A stretch of 64,000 bases of DNA from Anolis carolinensis (Eukaryota). Made by a program: the position numbers and the translations under genes. The stretch lies in contig NW_026943824.1 in the NCBI RefSeq assembly GCF_035594765.1, positions 8,140,317 through 8,204,316 on the forward strand, written 5' to 3'. How positions within the stretch are numbered: position 1 is the stretch's first letter; each line of letters begins with the position of its first letter. The notes under the pieces are model-generated. The model did no database searches. It was given only the letters and a program-made list of their open reading frames with translations, and was not told the origin of the DNA. Positions 6,483 through 62,526 of this stretch are shown here, piece by piece.

Positions 6483-6680
6483 TATTATTATTGTTTCATA
6501 TAGCTTTTATATTACTTTGTTATTATTAGCATCACTGTTGTTGTTTTATGTTACTATTACTAATATTATTATTTTGTTCCCTGCAGCCGGCGCTGGGCCT
6601 CCTGCCTGGGGGGCCACTGAGAGGGGCCCACTCCCCTGCCGCTTCTCATCTGGACGGACGCAACGGCCCTGGCAACAAGG

Positions 6681-9600
6681 ATGAGTGTCCCTGACTTCAC
6701 GCCAGACCCCGGGGGCGGCTTCTCGGAGGATGCCCCGCGGCCCCCAGTCCCCGGCGAGGAGGGGGAGCTGGTTTCCGCTGAGACTGGGCGCCCACCCAGC
6801 CACGGGGGCTTCTTCCACAGTGGGGAGGCCCTCAAGGCGGAGGCCACGCCCCGGCGGCCGGACCTGGACCTGGGCTACGAGCCCGAAGGCAGCGCTTCCC
6901 CGACACCCCCTGCCCTGCGCTGGGCCGGCTCCCTGCACTCGCTACTGGACGACCGGGACGGGACCCAGCTCTTCCGCAGCTTCCTACGGGAGGAGGGCTG
7001 CGCCGACCTGCTAGACTTCTGGTTTGCCTGCAGTGGCTTCCGGAAGCTGGCGCCCGGCGAAGGCAGCGAGGAGAAGCGGCTTAAGCTGGCCAGGGCCATT
7101 TACAAGAAGTACGTTTTGCACGGTGCTGGCGTGGTAGCACGTAGGGTCAAGCCAGCCACCAAGAGCTTCATCCGGGACTGCGTCCTGCGGCAGCTGGTGG
7201 ACCCGGCCGCCTTCGATCAGGCCCAGACCGAGGTTCAGGCTGCCATCGAGGAGCACTCCTACCCACTCTTCCTCAAGTCCGACATCTACCTGGAATACGC
7301 TAGGAGTGGTGGAGGAGGAGGGGGCTGCGGAGGCGGGGAGAGCCCCAAGGGCCCCTGTGGAGAACACAGCCCCGAGGGCAACGGGAAGAGCCTCCCAGGC
7401 TACCTGCCCACCCTCAACGAGGACGAGGAGTGGAAGGGCGAGGGGACCCCCGAGGGGAAGGGGAAAGGGGGCGTGTGCCGGGTGGTGGCGGAGGGCCCCC
7501 GAGACCCCCTACTGCCTCCCCCCTCCGGGTGCCTGACCCAGACGCTACGAAGGGAGACCGCTGTCCAGCAGGCCGCCCCCGGAGCCCCTCCCTCGGCCAG
7601 CAGCACTGCCGCAGTGGCCCCCAGGCGCTACAGCGAGGGACGGGAGTTCAGGTGAGAGGCAAGGGCTTGGCAGCATGTATCAATGTATGGAGGGAGCTGG
7701 GCTTTGGGCCACAAGGAGCTTCTATGGGGAAGAGGCCAGCCCCTTTCTCCAGCTTCTGAAAGAGGCACTCTCCAGCCCTTCTGTCTGAGTGCATTTCCAC
7801 ACAGCCATATAAACCAGAATATCAAGGCAGATAATCCACAATGTCTGGTTTGAACTGGGTTATCTGACTCAACACTGCCATATATCCCAGTTCAAAGAAG
7901 ATAATGTGGGATTTTATTCAGCTGTGTGGAAGGGGCCTGAGAGAGTGCTGGGGAGCAGCCAGTCCACTGCAACGGGGCTCATGGCTGTATTGGAAGGGTA
8001 GGAAGCTCCCCTCCCCTGAAATTGGTGATGGCATCATTTCCCCCTTCTAACACCGATGCCCCCTCTCAATGTGGGGGACAGGCCAGCAAGGCCCTCTCTC
8101 CCTTCCAGACTACTGTCCCTAGGATCCCAAAATAATAATATCCTGTCACTTGTAAAATTGTCAAAAATGACTCTATGAAAAGGAAACTTTTGGAGCCCCT
8201 GCTCTTCTCCTTGGCCTGCCGTCTCCCATTCTACCAGGCCTCAGCATCTGAAGGGGGGGGATGTATGCCAGTTGGAGCCTGACACAAGACGCACCCTGTT
8301 ACGGGGGGAGCCTTAGCTGGTTTGGACAAAAGCCCCCTTCTCCCTGGCTCCTCCCCATTGACTTCTCAGGCCTCTGGTTGTTTGCGGAGGCAGGACCCCA
8401 CTGTCACCTGTTCCTTCTCAATTGTGCACCAAATGTTTGCGGTAAAAATAGAACGCAGAGCGGAGGGCAGCATGCACTTTCCTTGTGTGTGCGTTTGCAG
8501 GCACACAATCAGCGGCCCTTTGAAAGCATGCCTTGGTCCACTTTTTTTGCTTTTGTTGCTCTCAAAGTGCTTCAGGAGCAAATCCAGATCTAAATGGCCC
8601 CAAGAGATTTGTAAACTGCAGGACTTAGAAGGGATGAGGGGGCAAAGGGGGGCTGAGATGGTTGGGATTCTTTCCAGGGCTTGGATTTTGGTGCCTGTGG
8701 GGCCTCCTTGGGATTATGAGGATTGCCCCAGGACCAGACTGGACAGAGCTGGGAAGGGGAAGCTGTGGGGCTGCTTGGACCACGGACAGCAGCCGGAAGT
8801 TACTATTATTTTGATGTTTATTATTATATTTTATGTCTGTTTATACCCTGTTTGTTCTCTCCACAAAGAGACTGAAAAGCATTTCAATACAATTTAAAAT
8901 CTAAAACATTTCAACAAGGTTGGGGCCTGGTGACCCCTTTTCCTGTCTGGAGGCAATTCTGTATCTCTGGGGTGGAGGGAAATCTAAGGGTCTGTTCCGG
9001 TTGAAATTGCCCAATGGATTTCTCAATGCGGGAGAACGGCCTCCCTGCTCAATTGCCCCAAGGAGGGCTTCCTCGGGAGCCTTTGGGCAAAGAGGTCCCC
9101 TTCCCAGAAAAGTTTCCTCCAAGAGACAAGCGATGCAGAAAGCCCTCTCAAGCCCTTCTCTGGCTCTGCTACCTCCCAGGGTCAAGCACAGTTGAGACCG
9201 GAAGATTGGGGGGCGGGGGACTCCAGATAGAACAGGCATGGACAAACTTGAGCCCTCCCTCCAAGTGTTTTGGACTATAACTCCCACAATTCTTAACAGC
9301 CTCAGGCCTCTTCCTTTTCCCCCTCAGCCGCTTAAGAGGCGAGAACCATCCTTCCCAGTCTCTGTTCGCTTTCAGAGGCACAAGACAGGCCCATGGCCTT
9401 GCGTTCGCCCTGTTTGGCTGGCTGTGGTCCTGGGGCCTTTTCCCGCGGCCTTACTGCCTCACTTGGCACAGGAGGAACCCGGCCTGGGCAAGAGAAGGGA
9501 GACTGTTCCAGAGTGTGGCCATCCAGCGCCTTCTCTGGGTGTGGGATGGACTGCCACCCTCGCTTTGCCTACGTGAACCCTTTTCTGATCGAGCAGCGGA

Positions 9601-29800: not shown

Positions 29801-32800
29801 GGGTCTGTCTTCCTCCCCCCAAAAGGATGGGGCCGAGGCAGACCCCAAAGGTTCTCTTTCTTTCTTTGCAGCCTGGGGTCTCAAACGTCTTGGAGCAGGG
29901 CCCTGAGCGCCGGAACTGCCATAGCACCCGAGTGCAGCTGGTAAGGGGGGTGGGGAATGGGTTCCTCTCTTGGGGTCCATTTATTGGGTCTGGGGGTGGG
30001 GCCATCCTTGCTTTCTTTTGGCCTACTGTGCTCTCTGGGCAATGGGGGTGGTCAAATGTGTGGGATGGTATCAGTCTGTGTCTGCACTGTTGACCTTACT
30101 AACTGACTGGTGTCTGCTGCGTCTTGTCTGTGGCTAAAGTGCGGGCGGGGGGAGCAGTGGGGGAGTAGACCCCCTCCCACGGCCTCCTTTTCTTGATCTG
30201 TGTGAAGGCGCTCCTTAATTGTGTGTTGGGGAGGGGGTCTTGTGTGCTTCTGCTGGGGGAATGGGGAGGAGCTGCTTGTGTCTCTGCCTGTTCCCCTGTC
30301 TGCCCCCCCCTCCTCAACTGACTTTTTCGGGGCCTGACCTTTCTTCTCTTGTGTCCTGCTTTGTCCGTCTGTCCACCTGTCCACGTAAGTCACTAACACT
30401 GCTGCTGATGTGTTGCTCAGGGGGGTTGGAGGGTCCATGGGCCTTGCTGGGGGGGGGGGGGGCAGCAGAGGGGCCTCCTCCATTAAGCAGACTGGGGCCT
30501 GCTCTTCCTATTCCCTCTCCCCTCTGCCTGGCTATCCTATCTGCTGATGGCCAGTTGGGGCATTGCCTATTTGCCCCTCTGTGTGACAGAAGGCGGGGAG
30601 CAATTGCTGGGGAGGAGGGTGGTGGGACACACAGAATGGACCTGATTGCTCTCTGTCTCTCCTTCTTGCAGGAGAAGAACACTGACTTCTATAAGCGGGA
30701 GGTGAGTGAGTGAATAAGGCTTCTGGGGTGTTGTGTGGTTTCAGGGCTGTATGGCCATGTTCTAGCAGCATTTTTCCTGGCAAGGAGACAAAACCCCAGT
30801 GATTCCAGCCATGAAGGCCTTCAACAGTATACTGTGAAGAAGCCTCCTGGGGTTGTACGCCTCCCCTGACCCCCTTCTCCCTCCCGCAGATCCGCTACTT
30901 CCGTGCGGCCATGGTCCGCACTCGCGTCAAGTCCTCCGTCTGCCTTGAAGGGTGAGTGAGTGGGTACAGACCACGGCCATTGTCCCCTGGCGCTTGGTCT
31001 CTGCCAGCTGCATGTCCCACCTGTGAAAGGTTTCCACAGATGCGGATGGGGAAGCACTCCGTGTGGATAGTCATGCAGGCCGGGGTCAGATTGCAAGTCC
31101 TTCCTGCCCCCAATCTTAGTCTGAAGGCAGTGTAGTTGGATGATATTTACCTCAGCACTGGGTCCCAACCATGTTTTGGGGATCTATCATTCCCCTCAGT
31201 GCTTTGGATCCTCCATCTTGCCCTCCTCAGGGGCTTCCTGTCACTCATAATTTTATTTATTTATTTACAGCATTTATATTCCGCCCTTCTCACCCCGAAG
31301 GGGATTCAGGGCAGATCACATTGCACACATAAAGTCAAACTTCAATGCCTTAACATAGAACAGAAACAGAGGCAAGATGCAGGCACGGGCTGGCCTCGAA
31401 CTCATGACCTCTTGGTCAGTGATTTGTTGCAGCTGGCTGCTAACCAGCCTGCGCCACAGCCTGGCTTTATAACCCAACGCTTCCTTGACTCCCCTTTGTA
31501 GTTACATCCGGTTCAATGAGCAGTATGTGCCCCATGACCCCGTTATGTCCGGCTGCCTCCCCAGCAACCCCTGGATCACAGGGGATACCATGTACTGGAC
31601 CATGAATGCCCCCACGTAAGCACAGCCTCCCCCAGACCCAGGGGTAAAGGGGGCAGTGGGTGGGTGAGGGGGCTCCACACCCAAAACGGTCTGCCCATTT
31701 ATTCCAGGGTGACTGCTCCCACCAAGCTGCGGGTGGAGCGCTGGAGTTTTGGCTTCAGTGAGCTCATAGGGGACCCCCTTGGCCGTGTCCAGCTCTTGGA
31801 GTTCCTCAAGAAGGAGTTCAGTGGTGAGACAAGGAAGGGATGTATGTGCATTGAGAAGAGGGCATTGGGTGCAGCAGTTCAAAGGAATAACTGCCTGGTG
31901 CTGTGGCCTTGCAGCCCCGATTGGTGTCCAGACCCTTATAGCTGACATGGGATCTAAAATAAGGGAGTATTGACCATGAAAATTCCCCCTGCTCCTTTTT
32001 CCTCTGTGCAGCTGAGAACCTGAGCTTCTGGGAGGCCTGTGAGGAGCTGCGCTACGGAGAGCAGGGGCGCATCGCAGAGATCGTGGACTCCATCTACCAG
32101 TGAGAGAGCGTGCCCCCTTCTTCCCTTTGGGGCTCAGAACAGTAGGGCTGGAGGTGCCTCCTTTGTCCCCCCTCCCCACACTTTCAAGGCTTGAGGTGGG
32201 GTGTTGTGTTGTTTCCAGGTTGTATGGATGTGTTCTAGCAGCCTTTTCTTCTGGAACGTCAGGGGAAAATGCTGCCACAACATGGCCATAAAGCCCGGAA
32301 ACCACACAACACCCAAGTGATTCCGGCCGTGAAAGCCTTTGACAATGCCTTGTTGAGGTGCCCCTTCTGTTTCCCTCCATCCCTCCCTCTCTTTCAAGGC
32401 AGTTCCTGGCCCCTGGAGCCACCCGCTGGGTCAACATTGACAGCAAGACCATGGAGCGGACCCTGGAGGGCATCAAGACCCCGCATCGCTACGTGATGGA
32501 TGACGCCCAGATGCACATCTACATGCTGATGAAGAAGGTGATTGACAGGAGGCAGGGCGGGAGCTTTGCAACACCCTTCTTTGGGGTTCCTCCAGGACAC
32601 GGAGGTTTGGCCCTACACCTCTCAACTCTCTTCTTAACCCCCATCCCCGAAATCAGGATTCGTACCCCCGTTTCATCAAGTCTGACCTCTACAAGAACCT
32701 GCTGGCGGAGGCCATCATCCCTCCGGAGACCAAGAGGCGGTGAGTGGGGGGGGGGGGTCAGTGGGGAGGAGGGGGTGACTGAGGGGAGGGGCTCAGGCAG

Positions 32801-32960
32801 GAGGAGGGCAATTGCTCTGACCCCTGACCCCCCCCTTTCCAGCGTGTTTCCCTTCATGCGCAAGCCCCGCCATGCCAGCCCCAGCCCCGCCCTGCAGCAG
32901 CTGCCTCCGGGGGACTCCGAGGGTCGAGCGGAGCCGGAGCAGCCGGAAGGAGGCACCTAG
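26874..32960 (+). CDS. RGS11: Regulator of G-protein signalling 11 (DEP-DHEX-GGL-RGS, ~470 aa, 17 exons)
   Basis: Exons 26874-26942, 27047-27143, 27233-27283, 28729-28835, 28940-28991, 29085-29143, 29245-29321, 29487-29568, 29872-29940, 30672-30701, 30890-30951, 31502-31615, 31708-31823, 32012-32099, 32399-32537, 32657-32739, 32843-32960. Peptides [64 protein letters not shown]. Synteny agrees. Confidence 0.96.
27400..27718 (+). mobile_element. Sauria-type SINE
   Basis: Same family as 24511-24819. Confidence 0.85.
28080..28530 (-). mobile_element. SINE with an L2-like tail (family also at 19441-19905, 31255-31462, 52005-52220)
   Basis: Shared segments TATTTATATTCCGCCCTT...CCTCGAACTCATGACCTC...CTGCGCCACAGCC. 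Confidence 0.55.
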
Positions 32961-41386: not shown

Positions 41387-44097
41387 GGTTAGAAGAGACC
41401 CTTTGGGCCATTTAGTCCAACCCCTTTAGCCTTTTTGCACCAAAAGCACAAGCAAAGCACCCCTGACAGTGGCCTCCCAGCCTCAATGTTAATAATAATA
41501 ATAATAAAGAGGGCTGGAAGAGAAGAAAAGACCCCTTAGGCCATTTAGCCCAACCCCCTTCTGCCTTTGTGCCATGGGGGCCGGATAAATGCCTTCGATG
41601 GGCTACATGTGGCCCACGGGCCATAGTTTGGAGACCCCTGATCTACTGTATTTCTAACTGTCATCCTGTTTAAAAGTCTGAATATTCTAAACTGTCTAAA
41701 TATTCTAAACGGTTCTAAACTGAACCGTCACGTGACCTACAGCCTTCCCACTGCTTTAGGTAGGAGACAACATAACTGCAAACTAAATAGTCTCACTTAT
41801 CCAACATTCGCTTATCTAATGTTCTGGATTATCCAACGCAGTCTGTCTTCCACAGCTGTTTCTCTAGGCAGCAAGGACTGAACTTTTTGCACATTTAATT
41901 TCCGACAATGTTGTTACTGTAAGTTCATCTTATGCAATTCTATCTTTATTTGTAGTCAATTTGTTAGTAGTCATTGTTTTTGTAGTAAATGTTTTCAATA
42001 CATTGTGATGTTTCGTGCTAAATTCGTAAATACAGTAAATACTACACAACGTTACCATGTATTGACCTGCTTTTTCTGTCAATTTGTTGTTAAACATGAT
42101 GTTTTGGTGCTTAATTTGTAAAATCATAACATAATTTGATGTTTAATAGGTGTTTCCTTAATCCCTCCTTATTATTCAACATATTCGCTTATCCAACATT
42201 CTGCCGGACCTTTTATGTTGGATAAGTGAGACTCTACTGTAGACATAAACTTCGGGATATAAATGGACATACTAAAGTGTAAAGAAGTATGAATTTTAAT
42301 TTACAGATGCCATGTTTAACTGTGTTTTAAAAAGGGTTAATATTTCAGTTACTCATGAGTTGGTTGCCATGGAGACGGGGCGGAGCCAACCGGGTTAGCT
42401 GAAGAGAGAGCAGAATTTGGAGGGAAAGTCAAGTCAGTCTGTAATGGGGGGGGGGGGTTTACAGGGAAGATTGATCCTGGTTGAAGGGATCAAGAGAGAC
42501 TTAATTGGTCATTTTGAGTCAGTGTGTCTGTGGTCAGCGAACCACAGGGAAGTGTGGGCTTTGTTGAAGCTCAAGGAAGGCTGATCCCAAGTTAGGGGAT
42601 CAGGGATAAAATAAGTTTGGTGACTTATTTTAACGTAGTCTGTTTCCTGACTAGGAACAGATAGTCTGTGATTGAAGTGGAGTTTTAAGAAGTTTGAAAC
42701 ACCTCATTCTGTTATTGCAATTGTTAAGGAACGTGCCTCAAACAAGAAGAAAAGTTATTGTAACCATCAAGCTTGTGCCTAAATAAATGTTATTATTCCT
42801 TCAAACATCTTAGTCTCTGTCATACATACACACATCAAGAATAAACAAAAGGAAGAAAGAAAAATAAAAGTCTCCTCTCTAAGTAGCCAGTGGCTGAATC
42901 TTCCAATATTGGTGGCAAGAGTTGATAATCCCCTTCATATCTGGTGGCCGCATTATAAACATCTTTACCTCTGGTGGCAGCGTTTAAACAAGACATCTTT
43001 AATAACTGGTGGCAGTAGATATAGTTATATATATAATACTAGCTGTGCCCGGCCACGCGTTGCTGTGGCGAAGTCTGGTGGTATGGGAAATAAAGTATTG
43101 AGGAATTGGTGGTAGTTAAGGTAAAGGGTAAAGGTTTTCCCCTGACATTAAGTCCATTATAAATGGGTTATATAGCTGTGTGGAAGGGCCTTGAGTCTAC
43201 ACTGCCATATAATCCAGTTAAAATCAGATAATCTGTATTTTATAGGCAGTGTGGAAGAGGCCTAAGTGAGGCCTAATTCTGCCTGTCCCCTGGGCTGTGG
43301 GTTGCTAGGAGACCAAGTGGGCAGAGCTTAGCCTTCTAACTGGCAGCAATTGGATAAAAACAATTATTCCTCTCCCTCTCATTAGGGCTTTATATTTCTT
43401 TTCTTTTTGTTGTATGAACGTAGAGGCATGGATGAGGGGTTGTGCTCCCAAGTTTAGTGTTTCTGGGATGTGTAGTTTTGTTGTTTTGTCCTAGGCCGAA
43501 ATTTCATTATCCTTTTATATATATAGATAATTTAATAAAAACATCATCCTTCTCCACATCTTCACAAATTGGTGGCAGTGGTGGGATTTAAAAAAGATTC
43601 CCCTCTGCCTAGAAGAGTCTCAGTCATTATTAGATGACAGTTGTTCTGACATCTTTACAATTGGTGGCAGCGGTGGGATTTCAAAAAGATTCCCCCCTGC
43701 CTGAATTCTCCACAAAAGGAAATATTACGAAGCCGATAAACATGACACAGAGGAGGCTTGAGAGGGTTGCTTCCTCCCACAGGCGGTGAGTTCCCAGGGC
43801 CCCTCTCCCCGTTCTTGACCCACCGGCCTGTTCGTAGCTCCGGCTCCAGGCGTGGGCGGGGCGAGGCTTGACGGGGCAGGGGATGACGAAGGAGAAGGCG
43901 AAGACCCCCACCAGGCAGAGCGCGAGCGAGAGGAAGAAGGCCCCCGCCCGCCACCGCGACAGCCGCTCCTCCCGCTTCCTCCGCGGCGAAGCTGGCACGG
44001 GCCCTGTCACCGCGCAGTTGCCCGCCGCCTCCACCGCCGCCTCCTCGCGCTTCAGCGGCCGGGCCTCCGCCTCCATGGGGCCTCCTCCGCCCTCCAT
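34907..44097 (-). CDS. FAM234A: FAM234A (ITFG3), type II membrane beta-propeller protein, ~570 aa, 11 coding exons
   Basis: Exons (minus strand) 44097-43824, 39528-39382, 38565-38386, 38285-38155, 37288-37156, 37073-36932, 36845-36705, 36103-36025, 35796-35641, 35313-35199, 35121-34907. Peptides RLSRWRAGAFFLSLALCLVGVFAFSFVIPCP, LPTADHLSVFLFWG, LYLFHPSLP, LFEKSRHACYVLMTGP. Convergent with RGS11 as in human. Confidence 0.93.
37340..37964 (+). mobile_element. 5'-truncated RTE-clade LINE
   Basis: LYACETWTVYRRH...LRWTGNVVRMPNHRLPKQLLYSEL, a C-terminal CPHCGRTCRSRIGLFSHLRTH finger, a (TAAG)n tail, and a TGTGAGG target-site duplication (37333-37339 / 37965-37971). One frameshift near 37765. Confidence 0.88.
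38904..39288. repeat. Long inverted repeat (150-bp arms, 85-bp loop) flanked by a 15-bp direct repeat
   Basis: 38904-39053 is the near-perfect reverse complement of 39139-39288. TACTTCCTTCAACAA occurs at 38861-38875 and 39290-39304. Confidence 0.9.
39630..40075 (-). mobile_element. Sauria-type SINE interrupted by an L2-tail element and a (TTA)n run (39892-39936)
   Basis: SINE halves at ~39630-39720 and ~39937-40075. Confidence 0.65.
40289..40687 (-). mobile_element. Possible solo LTR
   Basis: TGTT...AACA ends and a minus-strand AATAAA. The flanking AAAAGTTTTAT(G/A)ACTGCCTT is duplicated on both sides. Confidence 0.35.
40925..41648. mobile_element. Tc1/mariner MITE with a hAT element (41242-41640) nested in its right TIR
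   Basis: Left TIR at 40925. CAGGGGTCCCCAAACT...AGTTTGGAGACCCCTG splits the right TIR (GAGACTCT / CTACTGTA). The hAT contains (TAA)n at 41326-41383. Confidence 0.75.
41790..42239. mobile_element. Tc1/mariner MITE
   Basis: GTCTCACTTATCCAA...TTGGATAAGTGAGACTCTACTG followed by TA. Confidence 0.75.
42278..43700 (+). mobile_element. LTR-retrotransposon LTR with stacked tRNA-Leu primer-binding sites, interrupted by a Helitron
   Basis: Starts TGTAAAGAAGT, the inverted match to the repeated ACATCTTTACA ends. TGGTGGCAGCGGTGGGATT at 43662-43680 is complementary to the tRNA-Leu 3' end including CCA. Confidence 0.65.
43039..43527 (-). mobile_element. Non-autonomous Helitron
   Basis: Reverse-orientation TC...CTAG element homologous to 44916-45371. 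Confidence 0.75.
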
Positions 44098-44188
44098 CGA
44101 GACAACACGGAGAGAAGACGGAAGTGAGGCGCCGCCGGAAGAGGCGGCAACGTCACACACACGCGCCGGAAGTCACTGTCTAATAGCC
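44098..44188. promoter_or_regulatory. Bidirectional CpG-island promoter shared by FAM234A and TRAP1
   Basis: 91 bp between the divergent ATGs, with three ETS/GABP-type CGGAAG motifs (44119-44126, 44135-44141, 44166-44173). Confidence 0.8.
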
Positions 44189-54500: not shown

Positions 54501-54778
54501 CTTCGACAACAGACCTCACAACCTCCGAGGATGCCTGCCATAGATATGGGCAAAACATCAGGAGGGAATGCTTCTGGAACAGGGCCATACAGTCCGGAAA
54601 ACTCACAGCAACCCAGAATGGATCTGGTTCGTCATTTGGAGACCACTTGTATTCAGCTTCTTCTTTTCTGGCCCAGATCTACGACAACGCCATGATCGCG
54701 GCCGGCCTGAGCGACGACCCCCGACCCATGGTCAGCCGACTGAACCAGCTCCTGGCCAGAGCCCTGGAGAAGCACTGA
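44189..54778 (+). CDS. TRAP1: Mitochondrial HSP90 chaperone TRAP1 (~706 aa, 17 exons)
   Basis: Exons 44189-44441, 46495-46577, 47677-47817, 47959-48030, 48282-48442, 48968-49077, 49331-49404, 49590-49745, 49898-50018, 50099-50168, 50585-50732, 50877-51062, 51304-51442, 51584-51669, 52522-52667, 52782-52854, 54677-54778. Arg-rich presequence; peptides [66 protein letters not shown]; ends LLARALEKH*. Confidence 0.97.
44480..44905 (-). mobile_element. L1-like LINE 3' fragment
   Basis: Minus-strand open frame [27 protein letters not shown]...[10 protein letters not shown] resembles an L1 ORF2 C-terminus and has an A-rich tail. Confidence 0.45.
44916..45371 (+). mobile_element. Non-autonomous Helitron
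   Basis: A|TC...GCATGGCCGGGCACAGCTAG|T. Confidence 0.75.
45391..45510 (+). mobile_element. R4/Dong LINE extreme 3' end embedded in (TAA)n
   Basis: Near-identical to 58970-59090, with TAA repeats on both sides. Confidence 0.75.
45785..46105 (+). mobile_element. Sauria-type SINE
   Basis: Full family body and ACCTTT tail. Confidence 0.85.
46844..47151. mobile_element. Tc1/mariner MITE
   Basis: Intact TIRs with TA duplication. The host repeat without the insertion is visible at 27950-28080 (...AAAGTACAGTATGTC...). Confidence 0.85.
47316..47560 (+). mobile_element. Penelope-like fragment
   Basis: [34 protein letters not shown] (GIY-YIG region) followed by the GCGAAACGTCAGG terminal repeat. Confidence 0.7.
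53210..53519. mobile_element. Tc1/mariner MITE
   Basis: Family TIRs with TA flanks. Confidence 0.85.
54120..54615. mobile_element. Penelope-like terminal-repeat cluster with inverted and tandem copies
   Basis: 54272-54366 is inverted relative to 54387-54482; a further direct copy lies at 54505-54615. Confidence 0.7.
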
Positions 54779-54857
54779 GGCTCACGAGAAGGACTGACCA
54801 GAGAGAGAGAGAGAGAGAGAGAAGCCCCACTCTATTTAATTCCCCTTCCTTCCCTTC

Positions 54858-54863
54858 AATAAA
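54858..54863 (+). terminator. TRAP1 polyadenylation signal
   Basis: AATAAA 80 nt after the stop. Confidence 0.75.
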
Positions 54864-54939
54864 GACCCTTCTGTTCCCCTTCTGTGTCCAGCGACTCTTG
54901 TCTCTCCCTCGACGCTCCGGGCGCCCTTCTCTATGGCAG

Positions 54940-55006
54940 GGAAGGAGGAGTGAGTTCGGCCACGCCCCCTCCTCCTGTCGCGCATGCGCACCGCTCGGAG
55001 CCCGGG
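54940..55006 (+). promoter_or_regulatory. SLX4 proximal promoter with an NRF1 palindrome
   Basis: GCGCATGCGC at 54980-54989 and a GGCCACGCCCC Sp/KLF box, in a CpG-rich stretch immediately 5' of the ATG. Confidence 0.6.
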
Positions 55007-58000
55007 ATGGGCGACTCGGAGGACGAGTTCCGGCAGCAGCAGCGATGGCGGCAGGCGGGAGAGGGGGAAGCAAAGCGGAAGCGCGGCGGCTCTTCCCGGG
55101 AGGCTTCCTCCAAGCGGCGCCGGAGGGCGAAAAGCAAAGAGGAAGAGGCGGACCTGCAGCTGGCGCTGGCCCTCTCCCGCTCCCTCCACCCGGAAGAGGA
55201 GGAATCCCGGAAGCAGCGCCCTCTGGAGGCGGAGGCGAGGAAGCGCAGGAAGAAGGGCACTTCCGGAGCAGGTCAGGCAAACCTGGGCCTTTATTCCAGG
55301 TGTTTTGGACTACAACTCCCACACGCTTGAACCCTCCTTCCTATGACTTACCCTCACACTTTGAACCCTCCTCATGTCTCCTCTCAGCCTTCTCTTCTGT
55401 GGCTACACATGCCCAGCTCTTTAAGCCACTCCTCATAGGGATTATTCTCAATACATTTCTCATCCAAGCTAGGAGCTCTTCCGGATGATTGTTTAATATT
55501 TTAATTGTGTCTGTTTTAAATCATGACTTGTTAATTTGTTTTTTAAATGCATTCTTGATGCCTTAACTGTTGATTTTATGATATTATATGATTGCATTGG
55601 GCTTGCCCCTGTGTGAGCCGCTCCGAGTCCCCGTTGGGGAGATGGAGGCGGCATACAAAAATAAAATTATTATTATATTTTATTTTATGACACAGCAAAC
55701 AAGATAGATATACTGGATTTCCTATCACAAAATCACAAGTCAAACACTTCCCAAGTGTCTAGGACTGTGTGATGTATTTTTGGATGATGTGTGTAGATTC
55801 CAGTAGGGTGGTCTTTTGCAGTTGGCAGATCATAATTTTGTCAATGTCTATTGTTTCCAAATGCCGGCTGAGATCTTTTGGCACGGCACCCAATGTGCCG
55901 ATCACCACTGGGACCACCTGCACTGGTTTCTGCCAGAGTCTTTGAAGTTCAATCTTGAGGTCCTGATAGCGGCTGAGTTTTTCCTGTTGTTTTTCGTCAA
56001 TGCGACTGTCACCTGGGATGGCGACATCAATGATCCAAACCTTTTTCTTTTCCACAACTGTGATGTCTGGTGTGTTGTGTTCCAGAACTTTGTCAGTCTG
56101 AATTCGGAAGTCCCACAGTATCTTTGCATGCTCATTTTCCACAACCTTTGCAGGTTTGCAGTTCTTTACTGCAGGGAGGTGGTACTTGAGGCATAAGTTC
56201 CAATGAATCATTTGGGCCACATAGTTGTGCCTCTGTTTGTCTGTGCAATTTTCTTATAGCAGCTGAGGAGGTGATAAATGGTTTCGGCGGTTTCCTTGCA
56301 CAGTCTGCATTTTGGGTCATCAACTGATTTTTCGATCTTGGCCTTGATTGCATTTGTTCTGATGGCTTGCTCCTGGGCTGCAAGGATCAGGCCTTCTGTC
56401 TCCTTCTTCAGGGTCCCATTCGTGAGCCAGAGCCAGGTCTTCTCCTTATCAGCTTTTCCTTCAATTTTGTCAAGGAACTTTCCATGCAATGTTTTGTTGT
56501 GCCAGCTGTCAGCTCTAGTTTGTAGTGCGGATTTCTTGTACTGGTTTTTTGTCTGCTGTGCTTTGAGGAGTTTCTGATTTTTGACTTCAATCAAAGCAGG
56601 TTCTTCACTTTGCTTGACATATTCTGCCAGGGCATGTTCTTCTTCTTTGACTGCTTGTTTGACTTGTAAGAGTCCTCTGCCCCCTGATCTTCTAGGCAGA
56701 TACAGCCGGTCAACATCACTGCGAGGGTGCAGGGAATGATGAATGGTCATGAGTTTTCTTGTTTTTCTGTCCAAATTATCCAGTTCCGCCTGTGTCCAGT
56801 TTATGATGCCAGCAGTATATCTTATGACAGGTATGGCCCAGGTGTTTATGGCCTTGATGGTGTTGCCTCCATTGAGCTTGCTTTTGAGAATTTTTCTGAC
56901 CCTTTGTGTGTATTCTTTGCTGACCAGTTTTCACATGTTCATGCTTGATGTTGTCCAGCTGTAATATGCCCAGATATTTATAGGCCTCTGGCTGGTGACA
57001 CTTTATTGTTTGGCCATTAGGCATATTTATGCCCTCACTTTCAGTGATTTTTCCCTTCTTCAATGCCACTGTTGAACATTTGTCCAAACCAAACTCCATG
57101 CTGATATCAGTGCTAAAAATTCGGACAGTGTTAGTCAGAGACTGGATTTCAGTTTCCGTTTTCCCATACAGCTTCAGGTCATCCATGTACATCAGATGCG
57201 AAATTTTGTGAGATTTCTTAGATGTTTGATAGCCAAGATTTGTTTTTTGTAAGATTGTTGACAGAGGGATCATGGCAATAATGAAAAGCAGAGGGGACAA
57301 TGAGTCTCCCTGGAAAATTCCTCTCCCGATGTTGACAAGTCCATAGCTTTCATTTCCAATAAACAGTTCAGTTTTCCAGTGCTCCATCATGTTTTCAATA
57401 AAGGTGCCAATGTTTTTANNNNNNNNNNNNNNNNNNNNNNNNNNNNNNNNNNNNNNNNNNNNNNNNNNNNNNNNNNNNNNNNNNNNNNNNNNNNNNNNNN
57501 NNNNNNNNNNNNNNNNNNNNNNNNNNNNNNNNNNNNNNNNNNNNNNNNNNNNNNNNNNNNNNNNNNATCATTTGAGTCGCCCTCCTCTGGACACTTTCCA
57601 GCTTGTTGACATCTCCCTCAAACTGCAGTGCCCAGAATTGGACACAGTGTGATTCTAGGTGTGGTCTGACCAAGGCAGAATAGAGGGGAACATGACTTCC
57701 TTGGATCTAGACACTAGACTCCTTTTAGTGCAGGCCATAATCCCATTGGCTTTTTTAGCTGCCACATGACATTGTTGGCTCATGTTTAACTTGTTGTCCT
57801 CTTCCTTTTCATCTCCTCTTCTTTCTGCTGCAGGGAGGGGCCGCTGCCGGAAGCCCCCCCGCTCTCCGCCTCCACTGCTGCTGCCGCAGGACCCAGCCAA
57901 GACCCGCCAGGAGACGGAGGCCCGTGTGGCTTCACTGCTGCTGCGGCCTGAGGCGGCACCGCCTCCCCGCACCCCTCCGCTGCCATCCAGCCGCCTCTGG

Positions 58001-58705
58001 GAGGCCCAGCAGTCTGGGGAAGGGGCCCTGTGGCCCCTGGGAGCCTGGTGGGGACTCAGCGCCTTGGCGGGAGACTCCCTCCCGGAACAGAACTGCTGTG
58101 CCACAGGCCCCCTTCTCCAGGTGTCATTGTTAACAGATCAGGTACTTTGCATGGGGCCGGGGAGGATGGGGGACGGAATAATGTCGGGCTTACCAGAGGT
58201 TGTGGAGGCTGAGGCAAGCACACCCTTCTCCTTCTCCTCCTCTTCCCAGGGGTCTGAGCCAGAGCCTCCAAGGAGGAATTGCCTTTCACCAGAACCCAAG
58301 CCTCCCCAGGTCTGCGATCCAAGTCAGGAAGTGGCTGGCAGCCACGAGGGGGCCCTGCGGGTCCTGGAGGACCTGGCCGGAGAGGGCTTGACCCTCACCC
58401 AGTGGGGCCTGGATGCTCAACGGGGGCCAGGTGAGAGGGGGCCCATCTTCTTCCCCGAGGTCTACTGGGCTCAAGGAGAGAGCCCTTCAGCAGAGAAAGG
58501 GGGCTTGGCTCAGTCTGGAGGAGAACTACTTCTTTACATGGTCCTTGTTTTTCATTGAGGGCAAGAACAAGAGGCACCAGGTGACGCCTCTCAGGAGACG
58601 CCCATCCACTTACAAGAAGAAGAGGAGAAGGTAATAATAATAATCATCATAATTGCTCTGCAGATCCTGGTTTATCCCAGAACTGGGCTGGTGATGATGA
58701 TGATG

Positions 58706-58746
<41 letters not shown>

Positions 58747-61700
58747 CAGACGATAATAATAGACAATAATAATAGACGAAAAACAACAGGAAAAACTCAG
58801 CCGCTATCAGGACCTCAAGATTGAACTTCAAAGACTCTGGCAGAAACCAGTGTAGGTGGTCCCGGTGGTGATGGGCACACTGGGTGCCGTGCCAAAAGAT
58901 CTCAGCCGGCATTTGGAAACAATAGACATTGACAAAATTACGATCTGCCAACTGCAAAAGGCCACCCTACTGGGATCTGCACGCATCATCCGAAAATACC
59001 TCACACAGTCCTAGACACTTGGGAAGTGTTCGACTTGTGATTTTGTGATATGAAATCCAGCATATCTATCTTGTTTGCTGTGTCATAATAAAATAATAAT
59101 AATTAATAATAATAATAATAATTGCAGCTCAGATCCTGGTTTCTCCCTCTGCCTGAAGGGAACTGGGCTCCCGAGCATTTGAACCCTGGCCAGAGGCTTT
59201 CAGGGCTGGCACACTGGTAGCAGCTGTTTAGTTATAATTGAAAGGGTTTTTCTTGACAAAAGATGCTCTCTCTCTTTGTTACAGCTCAACTCATTAGCCG
59301 CTGCCTTTGGGGCCATGGTCAACAATCCCCACCTGAGTGACGTGCAGTTCCAGGTGGACAGTGGGGAGGTCATCTATGCCCACCTGTTTGTGCTCTATGC
59401 CCGGTGCCCACAGCTCTTGGAACTTGTGAGTGTTTTGCAGGGGGGTGGCAGAGGTTGGATGTAGCGGTGGTTGCTCAGCCTGTTCTTTGCAATGGTCCCT
59501 GGTTTTTCTTTGGAAGCTTGGGTCAGCCTCCTTCTGCAGCGGCTCTTGGACCTTCCTTCTATCCTTCCATAGTAGCTCTTGATCTTTACTTCCTTCCCTC
59601 CTTCTGCCACCAGGTGGGCCGCACGGGGTTTGTGGTGGCTGAAGATGGAGGTGCGGAGACACGTCGCCTGCTGTTGAGTGACGTTTCGGCCGAGGCGGTG
59701 GCCACTTTTTTGCGGTTTCTCTACGCAGCTGACCCCTGGGTCCCTCTCCACCTGCAGGCCCCTGTGGGAGCCCTGGCTGCCAGGTGTGCTCCTCCCTGGT
59801 CTCTCTCTACCCATGGGCCCTTGGACCACTGAGCCCCATCCCATGAGCCCCCAACCCCTGCAAGCAGATCCCAACCTATGTCTTTACAATTGATACACTG
59901 AGACACAGAAATTCTTCTGGTGATTGATTGTTGCACATAGTTATGTTTTAAATTAGTGATAATAGAAAAGTTTCCAGAGAAGGCATGCTTTCCAAAGGAA
60001 GCAAGGAAGTGTTGTTCTTTCCCGTTTCCTGTGGGCTTCTGTCCTCACCTTCCTCTTTGCCTGGCAGCCCTCTTTGCAATAAATGACAGTTGTTTGTAAT
60101 GTTTGCAGGTTCGGAGTGCAGGATTTGGTCGCTCTGTGCAGACGCTGCCACAGCTCCCGAGTGGCTGGAGGAGAAGGAGGCAGCCTTGGGAATCCTGGAG
60201 GCGGTGATGATGGAGATGATGATGGTGGTAAAGAGGAGGACAGGGCTGAGACCTTTGAGGGGCTCCTGGAGTCAATGTGGCTGGAAGAGGAGGAGGAAGA
60301 AGAGGCATATCCGAACTTGGCAGCCCAAGAGGGGAGCAGCAGCAAAACCATGGGAGAAGAAGAACTGGAAGAGATCTACCAGTTTGCTGCCACCCAACGC
60401 GCCTCTTCTGCCCGAGGCGGAAGGAATGAGGGGCAGGGGGAGGAAGAAGCCCTGGGCGAGGGCCACCCGATCCCAGGGGGAAGGTGGCCAGGCCACTCTC
60501 TCGGTTGCCCTCCCACCAAAGAGGGACCGGATCCCCCCACTCTGCCTCACCAGCCAACACAGAAGACGCCTGTTACAGACACTCCCTTGGGGCTAGATAG
60601 ACCGCAGAGGGAGTCTTTCACGGCACTCAGCAACTGCCTGCTTCGTGGACCTGTTCCATCTCCGTCTGCCTCCGTGCCAGGCCCAACTGGAAGGAGATCG
60701 CTCTCCTCCTCTCCCTCTTCCTCTCATAAGACGCCCCACAGCCATGAGGAGAAAGCCCTCTTTGGTGCAAGGCCTCTGTCTGGGAATCTGGACCCTATTG
60801 TGGTGCTAGATTCAGATGAAGAGCCGGAGTGTGGGGCTTCTCTGGATAGAGGCATTCCCGGGCCAGACTTGGTGGTCTTGGGGCTCCTTGGCCCCCCAAG
60901 CGAGAGCCAAGAGCGGCTGCAGCTGAGCACCAGTGACGAGGACAGCGACAGAGGCAGGAGGCTGCTGGTGCCGGACACCCCTCTGCCCAGGAAGCCCAGC
61001 CAGGCCGGAGATCCTGATGTCGGTGCCAGCCCTGGGCCGAAGAGCCCAGGGACCAGTGTGGGTCCCTTATCGCTAGGGACACCATCTCCAAAGGTCCAGT
61101 CTCCCACTTCCTCCAGGTCTCTGCCCTTGTCTCCCCCTTTGCCTGGCAGCCCTCCTTGCCCTTGGGACGAAGTGGTGGTTGTGGATGACAGCGAGGAGGA
61201 TGAAGATGGCGGCAGCCCTTTTGCCGGCACAGGAGGATCAGCAGCTGGAGGAGGCGGGGAACGAGGCTGGGGCTATGGGGCCAGAGAGGACTCTGACAGT
61301 GGTGACCCCATCCCTCTCACCCAGAGATCCCCGTCACCATCGACCCCGGGTAAGAATCCCGTCCTCCCTCTGAGGGCCGTGAGGACCCTTCTGAGGGAGC
61401 CTTCTTGATTGGAGACAATGAGACATCCTCTGCATGTCTCACCTGAAGTTCCTGAGTCTAAGCGGGGCCTCATCCTGGCCTCTGAGGCTCTGGGACTGGC
61501 CCAAGAGAAGGTGCTTCTCTGCAGCTTCCTCCCCAATGGCTGAGTGGCCAGTGCTGGTGAGCAGTGGCCTTTCTCTGCTCTGTGCCTCAGGACTCAAGGT
61601 GCTTGTGTCCGATTCTTCTCCAGATGCCTTTCAGTGTGAGGAGAGGGTGCCGCTGCTGCCACCCCAGACCCCAGTCACCCCGATGCCTTCCTACTCAGCC

Positions 61701-62526
61701 ATGGCGACCCCAGAGCTGAAAACGGAGTTGAAGAGGTGAGGTCTGTGCCCTCGGGACGGGCCATGGGGGGAGTAACCACAGTGACCACTTGCCCCTTTCT
61801 CTAGGTTTGGGGTCCGGGCCCTTCCAAAGCGCCAGATGGTCCTTAAGCTGAAGGAGATCTTCCAGTTCACGCACCCAGAGAGGAGGAAGGGGAGCGCCAC
61901 CTCCCCATTGGCCCCACGGCACTGTCCGGCTGGGGCCATACAGGAGAGCCAGAAGTCAGCCCTGCCTGGCTTGCAAAAGGTGCTACCCATGGCTCCTGCC
62001 CTTGGAAGTGATGACGTGGGCCGTCCCTCCTCTCCCCCGGCTTCCCAGGCGTCCACCGGATCCTCTGTGGCCACCTCCCACAGGTACGGGGTTGCACTTC
62101 TTTAGGGGGGGAAGGTGCTGGCTCCTTTGGGGAATCTGCTTTGTCTTAGAAGAAGCACACTCCCTTCTTCCTTCCACCAGTTCTTCTTCAGCCGAGTTCG
62201 AGACCAGTTGGCTGGAAGAGGAGGAGGCGGAAGCACCGGCAGCGTTGATGCCGGCCTCTCAAGTTCTCGCCCGCGAGGAGTCCAATCTGGAGGCCTTCCG
62301 GCGCCACATCCGCTCCTCGCCGGCCCTCTGCCGCCGGATCCTGCTCTACCAACCCATCGAGCTGGCCGCGTTGCATGCGGAGCTGAAACAGAGCGGGGTC
62401 AGGATCGCAGCAGGGAAGCTGCTGGACCTCCTGGACGCCCACGGCATCACCTTCACTACAGCCGAGGCGAGGAGGGAGTGCCGTGGGAGGAGACGGCTGG
62501 CGGGGAAGCAGCGGAAGCGTAGGTGA
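55007..62526 (+). CDS. SLX4: Structure-specific endonuclease scaffold SLX4, compact form (~1030 aa, 10 exons)
   Basis: Exons 55007-55271, 57834-58120, 58250-58430, 58560-58630, 59285-59425, 59614-59783, 60109-61349, 61624-61735, 61805-62083, 62181-62526, phase-consistent. Contains the BTB ([26 protein letters not shown]), SIM-like IVVLDSDEE and VVVVDDSEE, the SAP ([43 protein letters not shown]) and the SLX1-binding domain ([12 protein letters not shown]...[12 protein letters not shown]). Confidence 0.93.
55672..57418 (-). mobile_element. R4/Dong-clade LINE (RT + CCHC + restriction-like endonuclease), frameshifted, running into the gap
   Basis: [48 protein letters not shown]...PDITVV...IIDVAIPGD...EKLSRYQDL; TAA-rich 3' tail. 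Confidence 0.9.
57419..57566. other. Assembly gap (148 N)
   Basis: Run of N between the R4 and CR1 fragments in SLX4 intron 1. Confidence 1.
57567..57800 (-). mobile_element. CR1 LINE RT fragment
   Basis: [19 protein letters not shown]...[33 protein letters not shown]. Confidence 0.85.
58775..59095 (+). mobile_element. R4/Dong LINE 3' fragment in a (TAA)n tract
   Basis: [25 protein letters not shown]...[18 protein letters not shown], nearly identical to the copy at 55672, with TAA runs on both sides. Confidence 0.85.

Follow-up and report, generated by a model that had tools for sequence, protein, structure and literature searches.

Anolis carolinensis carries an intact SLX4 gene whose product has lost both UBZ4 fingers. 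The gene lies in the 64-kb stretch of DNA analysed here (the window) and is an anole orthologue of the SLX4/FANCP family. Its 10 exons, joined by GT-AG introns, span 55007-62526 (Table 1) and encode 1037 residues, a product identical to XP_062820461.1 and two residues different from XP_008119096.1. In a gene tree, Anolis SLX4 is sister to Sceloporus plus Phrynosoma (SH-aLRT 100).

Absence of both UBZ4 fingers in Anolis SLX4

The loss is visible within exon 1, a single open frame of 265 bases running from the ATG at 55007 to a GT donor at 55272. Three elements follow one another within 60 residues of its product: the N-terminal acidic motif, a basic motif, and an LxxAxAxS helix. The acidic motif directly abuts the basic motif that elsewhere comes after UBZ2. 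From the conserved Phe of the acidic motif to the start of the helix there are 42 residues in Anolis, compared with 350-399 in the five turtle and mammal sequences measured. One contig from an independent sequencing run covers 54830-55395 with 0 differences. Three other runs, which we guess to be RNA, cover an intron repeat only, with no cover on exon 1 and no joints reported, and are uninformative on expression and splicing.

Searches for the fingers elsewhere in the window gave consistent results. A CxxC..H..C/H pattern matched four times in the six frames of the 64 kb, once in the intron 1 LINE and never in an SLX4 exon. In Pfam searches of the Anolis protein, BTB and the Slx4 CCD scored above cut-off and no zinc finger was reported. 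We also built SLX4-specific profiles, one for UBZ1 (41 distinct orthologue segments) and one for UBZ2 (68). As positive controls, intact squamate fingers score 47-85 bits with these. In six frames of the window, the best matches reached 13.5 bits, spanning 9 profile positions, and 8.6 bits; each lies roughly 50 kb away from SLX4. This search rules out a UBZ exon 5' of exon 1 in the window. In the tblastn output examined, the UBZ-bearing N-terminus of Sceloporus matched exon 1 and low-complexity noise.

The fingers are expected between two motifs of one exon, so they cannot be concealed by the N gap of intron 1. UBZ exons inside the gap are likewise ruled out, as it follows the helix and orthologues carry no UBZ there. 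The same UBZ-less N-terminus is present in A. sagrei, in three sequences from two loci on different contigs. These two slightly diverged loci (P0003 and P0319/P0320) lie on contigs of 84.7 Mb and 110.5 Mb; they are possibly sex-chromosome copies, although this is a guess.

A sequence-only reading of this DNA had proposed a natural UBZ4 loss in an SLX4 of about 1030 residues. It described acidic and basic motifs joined in one exon but about 350 residues apart in human SLX4, no CxxC...H finger in any SLX4 exon, an N gap downstream of the fusion that does not hide the UBZs, TRAP1 ending 228 bp 5', and retained BTB, SIM, SAP, and SLX1-binding modules. These points are supported, the SIMs as SIM-like patterns, and the loss of both fingers in Anolis is confirmed.

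BTB, SAP, and CCD are retained. The CCD (Pfam PF09494, residues 960-1016) scores 52.6 bits against a cut-off of 24.8, and BTB (PF00651, residues 286-391) scores 33.1 bits against 20.5. The MUS81-binding SAP region, residues 811-853, is nearly invariant in alignment with orthologues. SIM-like patterns occur at residues 609 and 734 (pattern matches only); three SIMs have been reported in human SLX4.

Table 1. Features of the Anolis carolinensis SLX4 locus, in window coordinates.
Feature	Position	Strand	Remarks
Candidate promoter elements in CpG island	54959..54989	+	GC-box-like motif at 54959; GCGCATGCGC at 54980
SLX4 exon 1	55007..55271	+	acidic motif joined to post-UBZ2 basic motif; UBZ1, UBZ2, and likely SHIP box absent
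Basic motif, probably NLS-like, residues 23-40	55073..55126	+	
UIM-like helix, residues 45-60	55139..55186	+	corresponds to human 418-433
Broken LINE reverse-transcriptase fragment, intron 1	55665..57418	-	end repeated inverted at 58772-59104
Assembly gap, 148 N, intron 1	57419..57566	.	downstream of expected UBZ position
SLX4 exon 2	57834..58141	+	MLR with XPF-stimulating helix; altered XPF-anchor segment 58046-58099
SLX4 exon 3	58250..58430	+	
SLX4 exon 4	58560..58630	+	
SLX4 exon 5	59285..59425	+	BTB start
SLX4 exon 6	59614..59783	+	BTB
SLX4 exon 7	60109..61349	+	BTB end; SIM-like motifs 60797-60820 and 61172-61195
SLX4 exon 8	61624..61735	+	SAP (MUS81-binding) region start
SLX4 exon 9	61805..62083	+	remainder of SAP
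SLX4 exon 10	62181..62526	+	SLX1-binding CCD and stop

Genomic neighbourhood of SLX4

The TRAP1 stop (54776-54778) lies 228 bases 5' of the SLX4 ATG, and one TRAP1 exon was confirmed against the PDB. This stop, an AATAAA at 54858, the CpG-island promoter, and the SLX4 ATG all fall within 230 bases (54776-55007), which leaves no space for DNASE1 or for a non-coding first exon. In the human genome, DNASE1 lies between TRAP1 and SLX4. The CpG-island stretch 54880-55271 has 69% GC and a CpG observed/expected ratio of 0.85, and its motifs at 54959 and 54980 are presumably SP/KLF and NRF1 sites, respectively.

Elsewhere in the window, an AXIN1 exon is found at 6621-7652 (Pfam RGS and AXIN1_TNKS_BD). 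Frames at 31538-32957 and 43684-44172, the latter on the minus strand and head-to-head with TRAP1, lack Pfam support, and we take them to resemble RGS11 and FAM234A. Set beside the order of these genes that we assume for human 16p13.3, the arrangement suggests that the AXIN1-to-SLX4 region is a rearranged, compact version of it. The intron 1 repeat, which we label a LINE from the likeness of its translation, contributes to an inverted pair of LINE ends around SLX4 exons 2-4 (55665-56001 and 58772-59104; 337 bases, 94% identical).

Repeated loss of UBZ fingers across squamates

To place the anole gene among its relatives, we compared SLX4 proteins from three homologue searches, each covering the best 120-150 matches. 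Of the 146 matches listed, two fingers are present in 134, one in 6, and none in 6; those without two fingers are squamates plus two partial models. Beyond Anolis, the squamate survey is at the level of annotated protein models rather than DNA, and its UBZ counts exclude Lerista, Phrynocephalus, and Python, whose models are partial at the N-terminus.

The squamate sequences fall into several states. Both fingers are intact in seven (Pogona, Rhineura, Zootoca, two Podarcis, Hemicordylus, and Eublepharis). Sceloporus keeps UBZ1 and has lost UBZ2. Phrynosoma has only a UBZ1 remnant and no UBZ2, in a model annotated as a hypothetical protein, so that the damaged UBZ1 may be a modelling error. Elgaria, Paroedura (with a UBZ1 remnant of 28.9 bits), and Sphaerodactylus keep UBZ2 only. 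Neither finger is present in Anolis, Heteronotia, Varanus, Liasis, Pantherophis, Pituophis, or Crotalus. With UBZ1 lost or damaged in some lizards and UBZ2 lost in others, the pattern fits relaxed constraint; the seven sequences with both fingers intact argue that selection is not fully relaxed.

The SLX4 tree contains 28 rows, was built from 150 residues before BTB onward so that the UBZ region is excluded, and omits Crotalus, Lerista, Python, and duplicates. Species group largely as expected on it, with the caveat that these are quick trees in which uneven composition was flagged. Complete UBZ loss requires four changes (Anolis, snakes, Varanus, and Heteronotia), each imposed by branches whose SH-aLRT support is 95 or higher. 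A single paralogous clade of UBZ-less genes was rejected (p-AU 7.6e-58). A long branch, of 0.81 changes per column, separates squamates from the other amniotes. The loss is real in Anolis but recurs across squamates, a point that the sequence-only reading missed, and it appears to have been preceded by the squamate-wide changes described below.

The XPF anchor and the MSH2 box

By cryo-EM, human SLX4 residues 526-552 are reported to be resolved on XPF, with L530, W531, F545, Y546, and L550 in the interface, and residues 467-492 are resolved when DNA is bound (PMC12804970). Mutating Y546 together with other residues is also reported to disrupt XPF binding (PMC12804970). PDB chain 9qed_D served as our reference for human SLX4 330-555. 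The anchor pattern LW-x12..16-(F/Y)Y is present in 130/130 non-squamate amniote sequences, mostly birds and turtles with isoforms and so non-independent, versus 0/23 squamate sequences. A looser form of the pattern is found in 44 of 52 more distant representatives.

In Anolis, L530 is replaced by W and F545/Y546 by CC, with W531 and L536 kept. No squamate sequence examined has an equivalent of Y546. Squamates retain W531, the S and L that follow it, and the XPF-stimulating helix (human 476-492), and several lizards also retain F545. Judging from these residues, squamate XPF binding may persist via W531, the stimulating helix, and, often, F545.

The MSH2-binding SHIP box (human 209-218) is reported to be dispensable for crosslink repair (bioRxiv 2021.10.12.464076). 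A SHIP-like motif, which by position and its conserved Phe probably corresponds to this box, occurs in 118 of the 130 non-squamate amniote sequences versus 0 of 22 squamate sequences; Anolis lacks it. The tuatara model begins shortly before BTB and so cannot date these changes on the squamate stem. Just before UBZ1, a further helix, [DE]xx[LV]Axx[LV]Q, has a pre-BTB match in 122/130 non-squamate amniote versus 0/22 squamate sequences. It resembles the consensus of the MIU, a ubiquitin-binding motif.

A UIM-like helix in exon 1

The UIM consensus is acidic-phi-x-x-Ala-x-x-x-Ser, and the Anolis helix fits it through E45-E47, L50, A53, and S57. The Pfam UIM model (PF02809) scores 16.9 bits on exon 1 (E 0.0053) and 14.4-15 bits on three whole Anolis proteins, below the cut-off of 21. 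Anolis has the best UIM score among the SLX4s compared; in other SLX4s the model matched 0 of 12 in one set and 2 of 25 in another (12.4 and 7.4 bits). In Atlas, all three neighbouring clusters shown are UIMs (0.76-0.79), which we treat as a lead only. The PDB match to the ataxin-3 UIMs is not significant (E 0.77) and ranks below histone H5.

The helix is not an anole invention. The motif phi-x-x-A-x-[AV]-x-S, 40-130 residues past UBZ2, is found in 219/224 SLX4s with a UBZ2-like match versus 124/9897 background segments, which rules out such an origin and indicates, on comparative grounds, that the helix is ancestral in SLX4. The three positions preceding the motif are mostly acidic, and A53, A55, S57, and S59 are invariant among 28 aligned vertebrate SLX4s. 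In the N-termini of Anolis and Heteronotia, it is the sole conserved module left. Varanus and the four snake models have no UIM-like helix; lacking the UBZs as well, some squamates appear to cope without a recognisable ubiquitin reader. The earlier description of a ubiquitin-blind SLX4 stands as regards the fingers, both of which are gone, but blindness is not established, because the landmark motif used to recognise the fusion is itself UIM-like.

In human SLX4 the helix (418-433) falls inside the MLR (409-555) and outside the segments reported as resolved. In Xenopus extract, deletion of SLX4 286-444 is reported to impair recruitment of SLX4 itself to crosslinks, whereas point mutations that affect XPF binding do not have this effect (PMC6411836). 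From the spacing in six amphibian-type sequences, we infer that the helix lies within that deletion.

Other arrangements were seen in the homologue set. Some distant SLX4s (P0221, P0228, P0231, P0237, and P0225) have extra UBZ1-like matches, and P0225 has two tandem UIM-like helices at its N-terminus. A bird-like entry of 3997 residues (P0147) carries the whole UBZ pair twice and is probably a fused duplicate model.

Interpretation

Anoles and other finger-less squamates likely direct crosslink repair by another route, and the crosslink-repair role of squamate SLX4 itself may have changed. The explanation we favour, with confidence that is evenly divided, is that squamate SLX4 has been freed from ubiquitin-directed crosslink unhooking and now acts mainly as a SUMO/BTB-targeted scaffold for MUS81-EME1 and SLX1. 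The XPF anchor and the MSH2 box would have eroded first, on the squamate stem. The eroded anchor would bind XPF more weakly and loosen the tie of SLX4 to ubiquitin-directed unhooking, after which the fingers could have decayed separately, lineage by lineage, under relaxed selection. What remained would be the SUMO/BTB-targeted MUS81-SLX1 scaffold, with XPF or other nucleases, brought in independently of ubiquitin reading by SLX4, presumably unhooking the crosslinks.

It is rather less probable that the pathway is intact but was rewired, with XPF having adapted to the changed anchor in squamates and SLX4-XPF being brought to crosslinks by a different adaptor or by SUMO-SIM/BTB condensation, which would make the fingers dispensable. 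Conservation of W531, the stimulating helix, and BTB in all squamates aligned is consistent with this, as are the two SIM-like motifs kept in Anolis and the reported help of SIMs in targeting SLX4 (PMC7610648). On the other hand, Xenopus extract is reported to repair cisplatin crosslinks without the SIMs and BTB of SLX4 (PMC6411836), and no candidate adaptor was identified.

We regard as unlikely the proposal that the crosslink role is kept in Anolis, with the UIM-like helix, doubled by BTB dimerisation, replacing the UBZs as a candidate ubiquitin reader. The near-universal motif, the Pfam and Atlas scores, the survival of the helix as the lone N-terminal module in Anolis and Heteronotia, and the XPF-independent recruitment defect of the Xenopus deletion all point towards it. 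They are offset by the subthreshold score, the few UIM matches in other SLX4s, the non-significant ataxin-3 match, and the absence of the helix from snakes and Varanus. Moreover, the helix is still present in a UBZ-less patient SLX4 and in mouse UBZ1 mutants, none of which is reported to be recruited (PMC4075355).

An artefact, with UBZ exons that the assembly lacks or another full-length SLX4 copy, could draw on the GC-rich exon, the gap in intron 1, and the restriction of homologues to the best matches, but it is highly improbable: the missing part would sit inside one exon crossed by an independent contig, two A. carolinensis models, the three A. sagrei sequences, and four snake species agree, and the gene tree puts each species at its expected place.

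Our preferred explanation, loss of ubiquitin-directed unhooking with a retained resolvase scaffold, has two main difficulties. One is the set of seven squamate sequences with both fingers. The other is that, in mouse cells, both UBZs are reported to be needed for Holliday-junction resolution as well (PMC4075355), so a pure resolvase scaffold should miss the UBZs too.

Short UBZ-less models are already public, while descriptions of squamate finger loss or of a UIM in SLX4 were not found. The literature searched, which comprised few subscription papers and no supplements, contained in the portions available no mention of domain loss in reptile SLX4 or of an SLX4 UIM; where UIMs appear in the SLX4 papers examined, the term refers to RAP80 or PSMD4. 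A broader synthesis, which we put forward as doubtful, would be that the ubiquitin-to-XPF arm was dismantled at SLX4 in lizards and snakes, with UBZ loss at least four times, and that a UIM at human 418-433 gives animal SLX4 a third ubiquitin reader, which would explain XPF-independent MLR recruitment and be used alone by anoles. Repeated finger loss would reveal a bypass for FA-P-type defects or, alternatively, crosslink repair without ubiquitin reading by SLX4. For the XPF-independent MLR recruitment function in Xenopus extract, the comparison also yields a 16-residue candidate (human 418-433).

Comparison with known SLX4 systems

The known systems give the fingers a central role. Human and mouse cells are reported to require UBZ1 for crosslink repair, as chicken cells require the UBZs, and deletion of the UBZs causes Fanconi anaemia (PMC4075355). 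Acting downstream of RNF168, mammalian UBZ1 reads K63 chains and so brings SLX4-XPF to crosslinks (PMC8599992, PMC11388903), and the UBZs direct SLX4 to polyubiquitinated PCNA at telomeres (PMC11514459). Further background on SLX4 is found in PMC4835495 and PMC7156235.

Anolis SLX4 shares with vertebrate SLX4/FANCP (human, mouse, chicken, and Xenopus) the order of acidic motif, MLR core, BTB, SIM-like motifs, SAP, and CCD. It differs in length (1037 residues versus about 1800-1890 in birds and turtles), in lacking UBZ1, UBZ2, and the SHIP-like motif, and in the anchor substitutions (F545/Y546 to CC and L530 to W). Relative to UIMs (PF02809; RAP80 and ataxin-3), its exon 1 helix has the same acidic stretch followed by L-x-x-A-x-x-x-S in a short predicted helix. 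Unlike them, it scores below the curated cut-off, is present as a single copy, and has Leu instead of an acidic residue three positions past the Ser; its binding of the Ile44 patch of ubiquitin, as expected of a UIM, is a prediction.

The FA-P patient protein (457/1-3, in-frame UBZ deletion) likewise lacks UBZ function and keeps the helix, MLR, BTB, SAP, and CCD (PMC4075355). That protein is reported to be pathogenic and unrecruited to crosslinks, whereas the anole deletion is fixed in two species (PMC4075355 for the patient allele). The anole deletion, of about 310-360 residues, also takes the MSH2-box region, unlike that of the patient. Fungal Slx4, with a minimal SAP plus CCD, is a nuclease scaffold without UBZ, as in Anolis (PMC8599992). 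The fungal protein need never have had UBZs, whereas in lizard SLX4 their absence is a secondary loss, with BTB, MLR, and SIM-like motifs still in place.
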